Source of the DNA: a virus
Lineage: Duplodnaviria > Heunggongvirae > Uroviricota > Caudoviricetes
Length of the DNA: 9,984 nt
Strand: one strand, 5' to 3'
Virus record (IMG/VR): IMGVR_UViG_2740892442_000016
Both the position numbers and the translations under genes were made by a program. Of this stretch, positions 6,307 through 9,519 are shown one piece after another. Numbering within the stretch: position 1 is the first letter of the stretch; each line of letters starts with the position of its first letter. The notes under the pieces are model-generated. The model had not been told where the DNA came from, made no database searches, and saw nothing but the letters and a program-made list of their open reading frames with translations.

Positions 6307-6463
6307 AGCTTCAGCCCCTTGTATCCGTTAAATGATTCGGCAACAATCATCACCCACCACGCGCGTAATCTCACCCCTGCGCCGTTCTCCCGCCACGGCG
6401 ACAACAAAAAGCAGTAACCCCCTCCGCACGCACATGCGACCATGCCGCACAGGGAGGGAGCAG

Positions 6464-7573
6464 ATGACCGACACCACCATGCAATTGCTCAGTCAGGGCA
6501 CAGACACCGTGAAAATGCCGGATTTTGATATTCTCGCGGAGGGTAAAACGCTGTCAGGCGTGGCAGAGCGCCTGATGAGCCTGTCACTGACCGACAACCG
6601 GGGATTTGAGGCGGACCAGCTCACCATCACGCTGGATGATGCGGATGGTCAGTTGCAGCTACCGCCACGGGGCGCGCGCCTGACGGTTCTCATTGGCTGG
6701 AAGGGAGAACCGCTGACAGAAAAAGGCACTTACATTGTTGATGAAATCGCTCACGAAGGACCGCCGGACAGGCTGACTGTTTCAGCCAGAAGCGCAGATT
6801 TTCGGGATGAATTTAACGTTAAACGTGAGGTGTCCTGGCATGATGTGACCGTTGAGCGTGTGGTATCCGCCATCGCTCATCGGTATGGTCTGAAACCGCA
6901 AATCAGCGAAATGCTGATGGATATCGAAATCGACCACGCCGACCAGACCGAAGAAAGCGACATGTCCTTCCTTACGCGCATGGCGGAAATGCTGGGCGCA
7001 ATCACCACGGTAAAAAGCGGCAATCTGTTATTCATCATGCCAGGTGGTGGCGTGAACGCACAGGGCCAGCCGTTGCCCTCGTTCGCCATTACACGCAGCA
7101 GCGGCGATCGCCATCAGTTCCGCATTGCTGACCGCGAGGCGTATACGGGGGTACGCGCCTACTGGCTTGATCTTAATTACGGGAAAAAGAAAAAAGTCAG
7201 CGTGAAACGCCGTAAACCGCCAAAACCCAAAAAGGAGAAAAGCAGCAGCCGTGAAGGTGATTATATGGAAGGCGCGGAAGGCAATGTGTTTGTGTTACGC
7301 AAGACTTATCAGAACGAGCAGGCAGCAAGACGCGCAGCGGCGGCAAAGTGGCAGCAGCTACAACGCGGAGCCGCATCATTCTCCATCACGCTGGCATGTG
7401 GTCGTGCAGAACTCTACCCCGAAATGCATGGCACGGTAACAGGATTTAAAAGCGAGATTGATAATCAGGACTGGATTATTGCAAAAGCCGAGCACACCAT
7501 CGATAACAGCGGCTTTACCACGCAGCTTGAGCTTGAGGCAAAAATCTCGGAATGGATAGCAGAAACAGAGTGA
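6464..7573 (+). CDS. D: Phage tail protein D (P2 gpD / late control D family)
   Basis: ORF with AGGGAGGGAG RBS at 6451-6460 and ATG at 6464. Motifs SLTDNRGFEADQL, SARSADFRDEF, ESDMSFLTRMAE and YTGVRAYW fit the gpD family as recalled. The open frame runs upstream to 6332 but has no RBS there. Confidence 0.85.
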   Translation: MTDTTMQLLSQGTDTVKMPDFDILAEGKTLSGVAERLMSLSLTDNRGFEADQLTITLDDADGQLQLPPRGARLTVLIGWKGEPLTEKGTYIVDEIAHEGPPDRLTVSARSADFRDEFNVKREVSWHDVTVERVVSAIAHRYGLKPQISEMLMDIEIDHADQTEESDMSFLTRMAEMLGAITTVKSGNLLFIMPGGGVNAQGQPLPSFAITRSSGDRHQFRIADREAYTGVRAYWLDLNYGKKKKVSVKRRKPPKPKKEKSSSREGDYMEGAEGNVFVLRKTYQNEQAARRAAAAKWQQLQRGAASFSITLACGRAELYPEMHGTVTGFKSEIDNQDWIIAKAEHTIDNSGFTTQLELEAKISEWIAETE

Positions 7574-7615: not shown

Positions 7616-7876
7616 ATGTTCCGTTGTCCGCTTTGTGGCGCATCTGCCCGTATCCGCACCAGTCGTCCTGAAAATGATTCAAACACCGTGCGGCAAAAGT
7701 ATTACCAGTGTAACAACCTGGAATGCGGCGTATGCTTCTCAACACTGGAAGCTTTCCATAAATTCACATCAAAACACGCCTCCGGCGTTCACTCTTCAGA
7801 AGGTATCCCGTGGCATGAGCTGCCAGCTTCACACAGGGGAAACAATCAGATGAGTTTGCCTTTACCTCAGAATTAA
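7616..7876 (+). CDS. ogr: Ogr-type zinc-finger late transcription activator
   Basis: Starts MFRCPLCGASARIRTSR...YYQCNNLEC, giving the C-X2-C-X23-C-X4-C finger; AAGGGAGG RBS 5 nt upstream. At 86 aa it has a C-terminal extension relative to P2 Ogr (about 72 aa). Confidence 0.85.
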   Translation: MFRCPLCGASARIRTSRPENDSNTVRQKYYQCNNLECGVCFSTLEAFHKFTSKHASGVHSSEGIPWHELPASHRGNNQMSLPLPQN

Positions 7877-7885
7877 CAGGCAGAA

Positions 7886-7914
7886 TTGCCGGAGTAACAA
7901 AAAAGCGATAGATT
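7886..7914 (+). promoter_or_regulatory. Candidate sigma70 promoter for the toxin mRNA (TTGCCG, 17-bp spacer, TAGATT)
   Basis: Seen in sequence just after the ogr stop. It would place the transcript start near 7921, giving a leader of about 147 nt before the toxin ATG. Confidence 0.3.
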
Positions 7915-8067
7915 ACGCGCGGGTGCCTTTCGGCTGATGGTCGGAGGGAATACCCGAAGGCCAGATGTGGAAAGGCCCCGGAAAACATTTCTGTTTAACC
8001 GAGGCCCTAACATATCTACCTTAAGCAAGTGATAGGTTAGCGCCTCTCCAACAAAGGAGCAAGCGCT

Positions 8068-8208
8068 ATGTCGCAAAAATCGCTTACGGCCATCACGTTC
8101 TGCGTGACGGTAATCCTCATCATCTGGATGCTACACGGTTCGCTGTGTGAAATACGGATGAGCTTCTGGGGAGCGGAGTTTGCGGCGTTCTTACAGTGTA
8201 AGCAGTAA
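8068..8208 (+). CDS. Hok/Gef/PndA-family type I toxin (46 aa, single transmembrane helix)
   Basis: MSQKSLTAITFCVTVILIIWMLHGSLCEIRMSFWGAEFAAFLQCKQ: hydrophobic N-terminal helix followed by the SLCEIR and E-x-AAF-L-x-C-K motifs I recall from Hok and PndA; AAAGGAG RBS 8 nt upstream. Below the 60-aa cutoff of the ORF track. Confidence 0.65.
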   Translation: MSQKSLTAITFCVTVILIIWMLHGSLCEIRMSFWGAEFAAFLQCKQ

Positions 8209-8217
8209 GGAAACCGC

Positions 8218-8239
8218 GACGGGGGAGCAATCCCCCGTC
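8218..8239 (+). other. Stable stem-loop (9-bp GC-rich stem, GCAA tetraloop) directly after the toxin stop codon
   Basis: GACGGGGGA-GCAA-TCCCCCGTC seen in sequence; no U-tract follows, so it is more likely an mRNA structural element than a terminator. Confidence 0.4.
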
Positions 8240-8296
8240 AATCGGTTGCTAAGGTTGGCTGAAGTGGCACCCTATCTCACAGACATGAACAACAAA

Positions 8297-8328
8297 CCCG
8301 CAGCGTAAGAACTGCGGGTTTTCTTTTT
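8297..8328 (+). terminator. Rho-independent terminator (CCCGCAG stem, 8-nt loop, TTTTCTTTTT tail)
   Basis: Seen in sequence; would end the toxin transcript at a total length of roughly 400 nt. Confidence 0.6.
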
Positions 8329-8336
8329 GGAACTAT

Positions 8337-8364
8337 CACTAGCTAGTGTACCGTTAACGGCACA
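8337..8364. promoter_or_regulatory. Two overlapping palindromes: CACTAGCTAGTG (perfect 12-mer) and TGTaCCGTTAACGGcACA (matches the TGT-N12-ACA dyad)
   Basis: Seen in sequence. TGT-N12-ACA is the dyad I recall for Ogr/Delta-type late activators; no clear -10 element is placed correctly on either side, so function is unassigned. Confidence 0.3.
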
Positions 8365-8396
8365 TAATGCTCGCACAACAAACCTGTTAAAAGAGA

Positions 8397-8678
8397 TTAC
8401 TCAGCATTCTCCTGCTTCCATTGCCGGATCATTTCATCGGTAACATCACCCTCATAACATACCACGTCATACCCTCCATTACGGCTATATGCACTGCGTC
8501 CACCACATCTACTACCATTCCTTGCATGATTATAAGGACACGCACAATTGCCTGGATAAGATTCAATGGATTCTTTAATTATTTCTTTTTTGATCTGAGC
8601 ATCAGACTTTCCTGTTGCTGCATATCCGCTAAAAGATACTAAACAAAGGCAGATTGCCATTAATAAACCACATCGCAT
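8397..8678 (-). CDS. Hypothetical small secreted Cys-containing protein in an AT-rich cargo segment
   Basis: The ORF is open to 8792, but the likely start is the Met at 8678 that begins a signal-peptide-like stretch (MRCGLLMAICLCLVSFSGYAA, A-A before TGK). The mature part is about 70 aa with four Cys (GNCACPYNHARNGSRCGGRSAYSRNGGYDVVCYEG). Weak RBS; local AT content is clearly higher than in the flanking phage genes. Family not recognised. Confidence 0.45.
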   Translation of the reverse strand: MRCGLLMAICLCLVSFSGYAATGKSDAQIKKEIIKESIESYPGNCACPYNHARNGSRCGGRSAYSRNGGYDVVCYEGDVTDEMIRQWKQENAE

Positions 8679-8910
8679 ACCGATACACTCTATTACTAAC
8701 CAATCATAGTCCACATCATAAAATCGAGATGAGGAGTACAATACCTTTAACAAGAAGGTGTCATAACGATAATATGTCGTGCAATTCATCAAAAAAAAGA
8801 TCTATATCAAAGAGATAGAACTCTTATCAGTGCTTCAGACATCGGCATTCGAGGCAGCAGAAAAACAGTAAATTTGACGAATTTGCCTTTTCCCAAGATG
8901 TTGTCAGATT

Positions 8911-9064
8911 AAAAAGATAGATTAGCGCAGGTACCTGTTGGTGGATTGCAGGAGGAAAAATGAAGTCGAGTGGAAAAATCCCAGAAAAATTTTTGTTTAA
9001 CAGAGGTCCTGGTTCACTATGCGAAATACGGAGGAGCTGCAGAAGAATTCTGCTTCATCCTTAG
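8911..9064 (+). pseudogene. Internally deleted paralog of the toxin locus (promoter -10, leader and toxin C-terminal segment retained; toxin transmembrane region missing)
   Basis: 8911-8935 resembles 7900-7927 (AAAAAG..ATAGATTA..GCGCAGGTACC), 8970-9010 resembles 7967-8008, and 9011-9042 resembles 8137-8170; the 128 bp between the last two in the intact copy (8009-8136) are absent. The remaining ORF (ATG 8960, stop 9062-9064) reads MKSSGKIPEKFLFNRGPGSLCEIRRSCRRILLHP. Confidence 0.45.
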
Positions 9065-9140
9065 AGTTTAAACAGCACGTGCACTACCATTGTTTCTGCA
9101 TATCGCCACACCATCGCCACTCAACCGCCATTGCACAAAA

Positions 9141-9173
9141 TACAAATACAAAAAAACCACCCGAAGGTGGTTT
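9141..9173 (-). terminator. Rho-independent terminator of the glyW-cysT-leuZ tRNA operon
   Basis: Plus-strand ACCACC-CGAA-GGTGGT hairpin (9156-9171); on the minus strand it is followed by TTTTTGTATTTG, about 45 nt past the leuZ 3' end. Confidence 0.6.
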
Positions 9174-9216
9174 CACGACACTGCTTATTGCTTTGATTTT
9201 ATTCTTATCTTTCCCA

Positions 9217-9303
9217 TGGTACCCGGAGCGGGACTTGAACCCGCACAGCGCGAACGCCGAGGGATTTTAAATCCCTTGTGTCTACCGATTCCACCATCCG
9301 GGC
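9217..9303 (-). tRNA. leuZ: tRNA-Leu (anticodon UAA), 87 nt, CCA encoded
   Basis: Reverse complement reads GCCCGGATGGTGGAATCGGTAGACACAAGGGATTTAAAATCCC...GGGTACCA: cloverleaf with long variable arm, matching E. coli leuZ as recalled. Confidence 0.92.
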
Positions 9304-9315
9304 TCGGGAAGAAAG

Positions 9316-9389
9316 TGGAGGCGCGTTCCGGAGTCGAACCGGACTAGACGGATTTGCAATCCGCTACATAACCGCTTTGTTAACGCGCC
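9316..9389 (-). tRNA. cysT: tRNA-Cys (anticodon GCA), 74 nt
   Basis: Reverse complement reads GGCGCGTTAACAAAGCGGTTATGTAGCGGATTGCAAATCCGTCTAGTCCGGTTCGACTCCGGAACGCGCCTCCA. Confidence 0.92.
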
Positions 9390-9442
9390 AAATTCTTCAG
9401 GCCTTTCAGCCAGACATCCGCTGACGCCGATGTCTTTTAAAC

Positions 9443-9519
<77 letters not shown>

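Follow-up and report, generated by a model that had tools for sequence, protein, structure and literature searches.

A probable hok/sok-family toxin-antitoxin cassette beside ogr at the right end of a P2-like prophage

Among the closest described relatives of the locus considered here are hok/sok (parB) of plasmid R1, the hokA, hokB/sokB and hokC/sokC loci of Escherichia coli K-12, and hokW-sokW of Sakai prophage 5 (Sp5). The last, the one prophage hok/sok known to have been studied at the bench, is a type I pair established by experiment, in which SokW is lost and HokW is made on mitomycin C induction and phage release about doubles; it is reported to aid lysis (PMC8621323). A 2026 preprint (bioRxiv 10.1101/2025.08.07.668861) counts 6290 Hok homologs in IMG/VR, reports that hok is about four-fold enriched in prophages with no enrichment near defence systems, and finds 42 of 45 diverse Hok homologs, a set that may or may not include the cluster treated here, to be toxic. 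Mok was explicitly left unanalysed in that survey. Here we describe a locus at about 7880-8330 of a 9,984-nucleotide stretch of viral DNA (the window; IMG/VR record IMGVR_UViG_2740892442_000016), which an earlier note had read from the letters alone as a Hok/PndA-like type I toxin locus immediately downstream of ogr.

We favour, at a probability of about 88%, the view that a type I toxin-antitoxin cassette of the hok/sok family is present here as accessory cargo between ogr and the attachment site of a P2-like prophage. Every sequence feature that the earlier note listed is present at the position it gave. The interpretation of several of them changes, and an antisense RNA gene that it could not place is now predicted on the minus strand.

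Toxin and sense transcript

The hok coding sequence runs on the plus strand from ATG 8068 to TAA 8206-8208 (46 codons; MSQKSLTAITFCVTVILIIWMLHGSLCEIRMSFWGAEFAAFLQCKQ) and predicts a peptide with one N-terminal hydrophobic helix, its hydropathy reaching a maximum of 2.4-3.1 across approximately residues 5-25 (11-residue windows). The Hok/Gef family search that had been proposed as a check yields a Pfam HOK_GEF (PF01848) match of 30.1 bits against a cutoff of 22 (E = 3.7e-7), in which residues 7-44 align with profile positions 5-42 of 42. PHROG 251 ('MokW-like host killing') matches the full length of the peptide (E = 2.5e-23). An identical sequence in E. coli 55989 is annotated by RefSeq as a Hok/Gef family protein (WP_000078920.1), and a protein database search returned only 'Hok/Gef family protein' relatives, nearly all of 46 amino acids, from Escherichia, Shigella, Salmonella and Klebsiella. 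In an alignment with K-12 HokA, HokB and HokC and two other Hok sequences, C12, T14, L26, E28, E37 and A39 are invariant and C27 is conserved except in HokB, which has Y. Six of these positions (C12, T14, L26, C27, E28 and E37) agree with the family-conserved positions of a published sequence logo (bioRxiv 10.1101/2025.08.07.668861). Across 12 diverged hok copies the median ratio of nonsynonymous to synonymous substitution rates (dN/dS) is 0.31 and the length of 46 codons is retained, which argues that the peptide is under purifying selection. Judged by its sequence, the reading frame is a Hok/Gef toxin, and the original call of a Hok-family type I toxin locus is supported by the Pfam score, the RefSeq annotation and a match to the Rfam leader model described below.

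The 'PndA-like' half of the earlier description is less apt than the 'Hok' half. The nearest named relative is HokA (43% identity), with HokB and HokC at 22% each, and the best NCBIfam models for the peptide are HokA and then the Hok subfamily, both far under their cutoffs. For the HokA equivalog NF007290 the score is 35.8 bits against a cutoff of 89, outside the range of membership. Since the Pfam threshold is passed while the NCBIfam thresholds are not, the peptide is placed as a member of the Hok family and not as an ortholog of a named K-12 Hok. By sequence comparison it belongs to a distinct clade of 46-amino-acid Hok peptides and is not HokA.

A candidate promoter upstream of this frame (-35 TTGCCG at 7886-7891, a 17-nucleotide spacer, and -10 TAGATT at 7909-7914, plus strand) is read from the sequence and from its conservation among homologs. 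The -10 hexamer (TAGATT, TAGAAT or TAGAGT) and its fixed spacing to GGGTGC are kept in most homologs and in K-12 hokB and hokC, in keeping with the promoter that had been proposed at 7886-7914. A generic sigma-70 scan reported neither this promoter nor that of sok. The former agrees with the consensus at only 8 of 12 positions, which explains why the scan passed over it, and both promoters were consequently placed by homology.

At gathering thresholds, Rfam finds only three tRNAs in the window. When E-value thresholds are used instead, RF01794 (sok/hok-leader) aligns end to end, model positions 1-157 of 157, with 7921-8078 (47.9 bits, E = 1.2e-9). The covariance-model search suggested earlier thus gives a full-length match, with a score below the curated gathering score of 59. 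The model is named 'sok' yet matches the hok-sense strand of the leader here, as it likewise does at K-12 hokB (110 bits) and hokC (118 bits); other members of the 46-amino-acid clade score 38-57 bits. Its alignment begins exactly at 7921, in agreement with the proposed 5' end at GGGTGCC and with a leader of 147 nucleotides. An intrinsic terminator occupies 8294-8331 on the plus strand, with a stem at 8294-8321 followed by a T-run, so that the hairpin first noticed at 8297-8328 is indeed there; it is the last phage-derived feature before the prophage end. Together, the start of the Rfam alignment and the terminator predict a full-length hok mRNA from 7921 to 8328 of about 408 nucleotides, close to the 400 or so that had been expected. 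This RNA has a predicted folding energy of -178.1 kcal/mol (z = -7.9), and its 5' end is paired to its 3' region in the minimum-free-energy structure.

The appraisal of the pairing between the two ends also changes. The complementarity between GGGTGCC (7921-7927) and GGCACCC (8266-8272) was correctly noticed, but its description as a modest 7 base pairs was wrong, because it extends to 18. The tac element at the mRNA 5' end (7921-7938, plus strand) contains GGGTGCCTT, which is invariant in 14 homologs, and is predicted to pair in the full-length RNA with a fold-back inhibition (fbi) element at 8254-8272, located by duplex folding. The tac/fbi duplex has 18 base pairs and one bulge (-27.0 kcal/mol), against about -12 kcal/mol for shuffled partners, and none of 200 shuffles is as good. 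End pairing of 13-18 base pairs (-21.6 to -30.1 kcal/mol) occurs in all 14 diverged homologs despite differing sequence in the distal part of the helix. With 18 pairs here and a counterpart in every homolog, the fold-back element is far stronger than first thought. RNAalifold did not recover tac/fbi from the alignment of full mRNAs, because the 3' region aligns poorly, and duplex folding of each sequence was used in its place. In RNA truncated at the 3' end, the predicted partner of tac is a nearby segment, which may be 7939-7955 or AAAGGCCCC (7971-7979).

Two further features lie in the 3' region. A GC-rich hairpin lies past the stop codon (8217-8240, plus strand), and several of its stem pairs show compensatory changes across the 14 homologs; going by the role described for the R1 system (PMC9841398), it is likely to be the protective 3' end of a processed, truncated hok mRNA. 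The adjoining segment 8243-8256, next to fbi, pairs in the full-length fold with the Sok-tail target (8019-8033).

Antisense RNA and proposed mechanism

The earlier note held that no antisense RNA gene could be placed with confidence. Homology to K-12 sokB and sokC now places one, with a promoter of its own: in the alignment of the loci, both annotated RNAs map to the minus strand with their 5' ends at 8026 and their 3' ends at 7965. The predicted Sok RNA, from 8026 to approximately 7965 and about 57-62 nucleotides long, would consist of a free 13-nucleotide 5' tail (GCUUAAGGUAGAU), one long hairpin, and UUUCC. The core stem of the hairpin pairs GGCCUCGG (8006-7999) with CCGGGGCC (7981-7974), and Sok, SokB and SokC align together on this common stem. 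The stem includes U.G and G.U pairs that would be mismatches if it were read on the sense strand. The 62-nucleotide RNA folds to -22.9 kcal/mol, and the antisense strand of this region folds better than the sense strand by 4-16 kcal/mol in all 14 homologs.

The putative Sok promoter has -35 TTGCTC at 8062-8057, a 17-nucleotide spacer, -10 TAACCT at 8039-8034, and a start at G8026, 7 nucleotides further on; its -35 hexamer overlaps the hok Shine-Dalgarno (SD) region. The sok promoter of R1 has the same layout, including a -35 that overlaps the hok SD. Among the 14 homologs the -10 (TAACCT or TATCCT) is invariant and the -35 (TTGCTC, TTTACT or TTGACT) is conserved. We therefore place the Sok gene, as a predicted RNA, with good confidence.

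Co-linear homology with K-12 hokB/sokB and hokC/sokC bears directly on whether the resemblance could be fortuitous, with no toxin-antitoxin locus present at all. Such a coincidence would account for the sub-threshold Rfam and NCBIfam scores and for nothing else in the data. The Pfam score lies above its cutoff, the PHROG match is strong, and the locus is conserved in Escherichia, Salmonella, Klebsiella and Citrobacter with dN/dS of about 0.3. The family matches refute the coincidence, and we give it practically no weight.

The elements of the proposed hok/sok cassette suggest a familiar course of events. Transcription from the promoter at 7886-7914 would produce the mRNA 7921-8328, whose first 18 nucleotides would pair with 8254-8272 while its ribosome binding site would be locked in a local hairpin. 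The convergent promoter at 8062-8034 would produce antisense Sok of about 60 nucleotides, with its free 5' tail and a terminator hairpin. By analogy with R1, the full-length mRNA would be inert and closed to Sok; the predicted fold has 8243-8256 engaged with the target of the Sok tail. A slow shortening from the 3' end, back to the 8217-8240 hairpin, would strip fbi and uncover that target, again as in R1, whereupon abundant but unstable Sok would pair with the mRNA and RNase III would destroy the duplex. Should the supply of Sok stop through loss of the element, shut-off of transcription or prophage induction, the R1 precedent suggests that the stable trimmed mRNA would be translated and that the 46-residue Hok would enter the inner membrane and kill or arrest the cell. 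A module for prophage retention is a reasonable guess at the purpose.

An ensemble calculation is consistent with the trimming step, since it predicts that the Sok-tail target is more accessible once the RNA is truncated (0.36) than when it is full-length (0.14). The 15-nucleotide target itself (8012-8026) is the most variable segment of the leader and coding region, at 0.80 bits per site against 0.10 for the hok coding sequence over 47 distinct E. coli-type alleles, and its variability equals that of fbi. Such variability might mean that co-resident copies have diverged in the specificity of their antitoxins, a process that would also scramble any mok frame that crosses the segment.

Leader frame and Shine-Dalgarno hairpin

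The window has no ORF (open reading frame) initiated at ATG, GTG or TTG that reaches the hok SD; stop codons intervene at 8022, 8030, 8033 and 8038. The short upstream ORF that had been noticed at 7937-8032 exists and does not overlap hok, as the note had said. It starts at ATG 7937 or GTG 7967 on the plus strand and ends at TGA 8030-8032, which is 36 nucleotides before the hok ATG and 10 nucleotides before the SD hairpin. A second short leader frame runs from ATG 7965 to TAA 8022-8024 on the same strand. In about one third of the distinct P2-type sister alleles the first of these frames stays open for 61-87 codons and overlaps hok, beginning at an ATGTG motif (7965-7969 in the window) or at the ATG corresponding to 7937. 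Relative to these open alleles the window has a net gain of one nucleotide around 8010-8024, with CCTTAAGC in place of CCTTAGC, and TGA 8030 thereby enters the frame. Because the gain breaks a frame that is open in relatives, the upstream ORF is best understood as the 5' part of a broken mok-like frame, and not as a chance ORF.

The condition of this frame varies widely within the clade. All three frames are closed in 40 of 62 distinct variants. Salmonella and Klebsiella members have no candidate for a mok-like ORF and yet encode a 46-codon Hok with dN/dS of 0.17-0.27, and in Citrobacter braakii a 34-codon ORF begins at the ATGTG motif and ends as TGATG on the hok start. A canonical mok start 8-9 nucleotides after GAGG was considered and rejected: the site that aligns with the ATG of mokB and mokC reads ATATC in the window, against ATATG in mokC, and no near-cognate start is conserved there across the clade.

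The ribosome binding site of hok, AAAGGAG at 8053-8059, lies 8 nucleotides before the ATG. It is the strong sequence that the earlier note took for a good site, but it is sequestered in the 3' arm of a hairpin. This SD hairpin (8040-8066, plus strand) pairs GCGCCUCUCC with GGAGCAAGCGC, places the SD at 8054-8059, and has a local folding energy of -10.5 kcal/mol. When a few flanking bases are included, the hairpin has -12 to -15.5 kcal/mol in 14 of 16 clade members regardless of mok status, and -10.5 and -5.8 kcal/mol in the other two. In local folds of K-12 hokB and hokC the SD has no comparable enclosing hairpin. An alternative partner for the 5' arm is GAGGCCCUAAC at 8001-8011; pairing with it forms a stem-loop that carries the Sok-tail target in its loop and that is the counterpart of the 'mok SD/dcb' stem of R1 (PMC9841398).

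Several observations count against reading the locus as a hok/sok cassette. The NCBIfam HokA and Hok scores fall far short of their cutoffs and the RF01794 score falls below its gathering score. The U-run of the Sok terminator (UUUCC) is weak. All three leader frames are closed between 8022 and 8040 and no ORF overlaps hok in this allele, and R1 loses its toxicity when mok is interrupted by a premature stop ahead of hok (PMC9841398). Ensemble folding finds the hok SD equally closed in both forms of the RNA, with a probability of being unpaired of 0.33 in the full-length and 0.34 in the truncated molecule.

The closed frames and the hairpin bear most directly on the alternative that this allele is translationally silenced or attenuated. 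If ribosomes reading mok are needed to melt the SD hairpin, then hardly any Hok would be made and the cassette would be a harmless passenger. Its mok-like frame stops at 8030-8032 where sister alleles remain open from the same ATGTG motif, and its SD hairpin is strong (-10.5 to -14.2 kcal/mol) and predicted to stay closed even after 3' trimming; the loss of toxicity in the R1 mok mutants points the same way. However, the mok-less Salmonella and Klebsiella members retain Hok under selection, mok-broken alleles make up the majority of distinct variants, and all other regulatory elements are intact in the window. We consider silencing possible but rather doubtful.

A second alternative keeps the toxin active and dispenses with mok. 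The segment GUUAGCGCCUC (8036-8046) could pair either with the hok SD, which would close it, or with GAGGCCCUAAC at 8001-8011, which would open it. After 3' trimming, tac would pair with AAAGGCCCC (7971-7979), freeing GAGGCCCUAAC to draw the anti-SD off the hok SD, and binding of Sok to 7965-8026 would reverse this opening. The two pairings are both possible and mutually exclusive. Relative to the closed state, the open state (with tac paired to AAAGGCCCC) costs 11 kcal/mol in the full-length RNA and 2.1 kcal/mol in RNA trimmed to 8244, so that truncation removes most of the gap. The RNAalifold consensus of the 14 homologs consists of tac/ucb and a GAGGC/GCCUC stem, with pairs retained in 12-14 of the 14, and the SD hairpin is characteristic of the clade without tracking mok status. 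Purifying selection on Hok in lineages without mok is also in line with such a switch. On the other side, SD accessibility in the ensemble is unchanged on truncation, no pair of the GAGGC/GCCUC stem shows a double compensatory change, and the same bases also belong to the Sok terminator and the Sok -10, a double duty that could by itself account for their conservation. Direct opening of the SD was set aside as the main explanation, because constrained folding makes the two states nearly iso-energetic after truncation whereas ensemble accessibility stays flat, and the switch is retained as a tentative rival, possible but, like silencing, rather doubtful.

A broader proposal follows the same lines and is comparably speculative. 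The 46-amino-acid clade carried by P2-like and lambdoid prophages might be independent of mok, with toggling of the anti-SD giving Sok direct control of translation and with rapid diversification of the 13-nucleotide Sok-tail target serving to avoid cross-talk among co-resident prophage copies, which would explain the scrambled mok frames. Two readings are left for the leader of our hok/sok cassette: this copy may be attenuated, or the clade may not depend on mok. The natural mixture of mok-intact, mok-broken and mok-less alleles that share the same strong SD hairpin offers a ready test of how universal mok coupling is.

Prophage setting and distribution

E. coli 55989 and at least 13 further complete genomes are 100% identical to the window over 7880-8340. 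In 55989, RefSeq lists the genes of the tail sheath and tube, followed in order by gpD (VgrG/Pvc8 family), the ogr/Delta zinc-finger protein, WP_000078920.1, a hypothetical protein, tRNA-Leu/Cys/Gly, pgsA and uvrC. The corresponding block of phage P88 (Peduoviridae, Xuanwuvirus) is 98.6% identical, and the peptide is named 'MokW-like host killing' there. From this gene order and this identity, we conclude that the window holds the right end of a P2-like (P88/Xuanwuvirus-type) E. coli prophage beside the leuZ-cysT-glyW tRNA operon. The placement of ogr directly upstream holds: the gene spans 7616-7876 on the plus strand (Pfam Ogr_Delta, 52.4 bits), and the hok cassette follows at once. The match with P88 and that with a P2-type phage copy borne by an IncC plasmid both end at 8328-8330. 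Because P88 homology stops just past the hok terminator, the cassette is the final phage feature before the attachment site, and its position marks it as accessory cargo between ogr and that site.

In the terminator scan, no plus-strand terminator was found between gpD/ogr and hok. Phage transcription could therefore enter hok and oppose the sok promoter. This bears on a different view of the purpose of the locus, in which it would act in the lytic cycle of the phage itself, with D-ogr late transcription leading to Hok on induction, or would serve as an abortive-infection defence, in place of post-segregational killing. The behaviour of hokW-sokW in Sp5 is a precedent for the first, since HokW appears on mitomycin C treatment and phage release roughly doubles, and a report that R1 hok/sok lowers the plating of T4, cited in the Discussion of PMC8621323, is a precedent for the second; the enrichment of hok in prophages (bioRxiv 10.1101/2025.08.07.668861) is compatible with both. 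The HokW of Sp5 is a different Hok of 51 amino acids from a lambdoid phage, however, and the same preprint finds no enrichment of hok near defence systems. We regard a lytic or defensive role as a serious contender, at somewhat less than even odds.

The hok/sok cassette is widespread with its clade. Of 5426 complete E. coli genomes, 1740 (approximately 32%) carry a homolog over its full length, at up to 9 places per genome, and so do 311 contigs of IMG/VR. In 79 of the 80 best viral contigs, hok is preceded on its own strand by ogr, usually at a distance of 193-195 nucleotides. The ogr-hok order recurs in a P2-like prophage of Salmonella next to ihfA/pheT, in an ST131 prophage next to serS, and on the IncC plasmid, where an integrase follows hok in the P2-type phage copy. 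Other clade members lie beside lom and tail-fibre genes of Stx and other lambdoid prophages and on conjugative plasmids. The clade spans Escherichia, Salmonella, Klebsiella and Citrobacter. About one third of complete E. coli genomes therefore carry it, and it is a near-constant companion of ogr in many P2-like prophages of E. coli and Salmonella. Wide carriage and this association together make the cassette a candidate influence on the stability of the prophage, on the timing of lysis or on the outcome of superinfection. Within the literature searched for the ogr-hok association, no paper specifically on the ogr-adjacent cassette was found. Public annotation has only the toxin ORF, to which the present placement of the Sok RNA and of the elements of the hok mRNA is a gain.

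Some members of the clade merit separate mention. A Salmonella copy at the end of a lambdoid prophage by fieF/pfkA (L095, 2306-2776) retains the Sok region, hok ORF, fbi and terminator. Unrelated sequence stands where its hok promoter and GGGTGCC 5' element would be, and it looks like a natural 5'-truncated copy that has lost both. At two other Salmonella loci (L012, 2809-2995, and L097, 2795-2992) the cassette lies about 150 nucleotides from the small RNA STnc540 (Rfam, 172-186 bits). Both are located by ihfA/pheT, an integration site other than that of the window, and a P2-like prophage end is shown for L097. A scan of GTDB genomes returned only 7 loci, of which 3 are in records labelled as non-enteric. 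These three are a metagenome-assembled genome of Planococcaceae, Vagococcus sp. and Xanthomonas pisi, whose Hok copies are 100%, 100% and 74% identical, respectively. The three records most likely represent contamination or mis-binned contigs, and not true occurrences outside Enterobacteriaceae.

The surroundings of the cassette show a few additional features. Positions 8331-9147 (817 base pairs) match neither phage P88 nor E. coli K-12, and may be left over from an element that occupied this integration site earlier. This islet includes a minus-strand ORF (8397-8678, extendable to 8792) for a small Cys-rich protein with a signal-like N-terminus that matches PHROG 27544 (function not known; E = 7e-58). 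Homology to K-12 resumes at 9148, the start of 3'ETS-leuZ, so that the insertion of prophage plus islet directly adjoins the leuZ 3' external transcribed spacer (9148-9518). In K-12, 3'ETS-leuZ is annotated as a small regulatory RNA and yecA lies on the other side of the junction. On the phage side, gpD, ogr and hok are on the plus strand and the sheath, tube and tape-measure genes are divergent, on the minus strand. The program-listed gpD ORF (6332-7573, 413 amino acids) has an N-terminal low-complexity stretch rich in Arg, Pro and Thr. For this region RefSeq has an 801-nucleotide gene and a 93-nucleotide pseudogene fragment on the opposite strand, and P88 annotates 1101 nucleotides; the true gpD start is probably downstream of 6332.

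Comparison with known systems

Apart from mok, the predicted architecture closely follows that of R1 hok/sok (parB; PMC9841398). The two loci share the toxin family, an mRNA of about 400 nucleotides in which a 5' tac pairs with a 3' fbi and a terminator comes after fbi, a protective hairpin that follows the stop codon, and a GAGG-containing stem that forms the Sok-target hairpin. They also share an antisense Sok of about 60 nucleotides with a free 5' tail and one hairpin, expressed from a promoter of the form TTGCNC-17-TAnCCT whose -35 overlaps the hok SD. The peptides differ in length, 52 amino acids in R1 and 46 here, and are only about 28% identical. Unlike R1, the window allele lacks a mok ORF that reaches hok, and the mok-like ORF found in some of its relatives begins where the Sok-complementary region has its 3' end, about 50 nucleotides further upstream than in R1. 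The hok SD is enclosed in a strong hairpin that is specific to the clade, and the cassette is carried by a phage and not by a plasmid.

K-12 hokB and hokC align co-linearly with the window from the -10 hexamer to fbi, with GGGTGC, GAGGCC and the hok ATG in register, and their sokB and sokC fall on 7965-8026. They differ in having a mok start where the window has ATATC, and in Rfam scores of 110-118 bits against 48. No named protein is closer than HokA (43% identity), but the equivalog score (35.8 against 89) makes the peptide no ortholog of it.

The hokW-sokW pair of Sp5 resembles the window locus in being a prophage-borne hok/sok. Its HokW is a 51-amino-acid, HokC-like peptide that begins MKQQKAM (primer YO-357, PMC8621323) and comes from a lambdoid phage. 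The window gene has a homolog in Stx phages, and its identity with the hokW-sokW of Takada et al. 2021 was considered; the primers of that study, which show the other peptide, rule this out (PMC8621323).

A further group of related loci comprises the 46-amino-acid hok genes of Stx2 and other lambdoid prophages, plasmids and Salmonella P2-like prophages. They belong to the same clade, with 74-99% nucleotide identity over the whole cassette, and contain the same elements, in Salmonella likewise directly after ogr. They differ in their terminators, flanks and Sok-tail target sequences and in the variable status of mok. The cassette is an ordinary one, known before and, except for its RNA parts, already annotated, and its one unusual point is the shortened mok frame of this copy. 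As identified, the finding matters little in itself, and its modest interest lies in the natural variation of mok and in the hypervariable target of the Sok tail.

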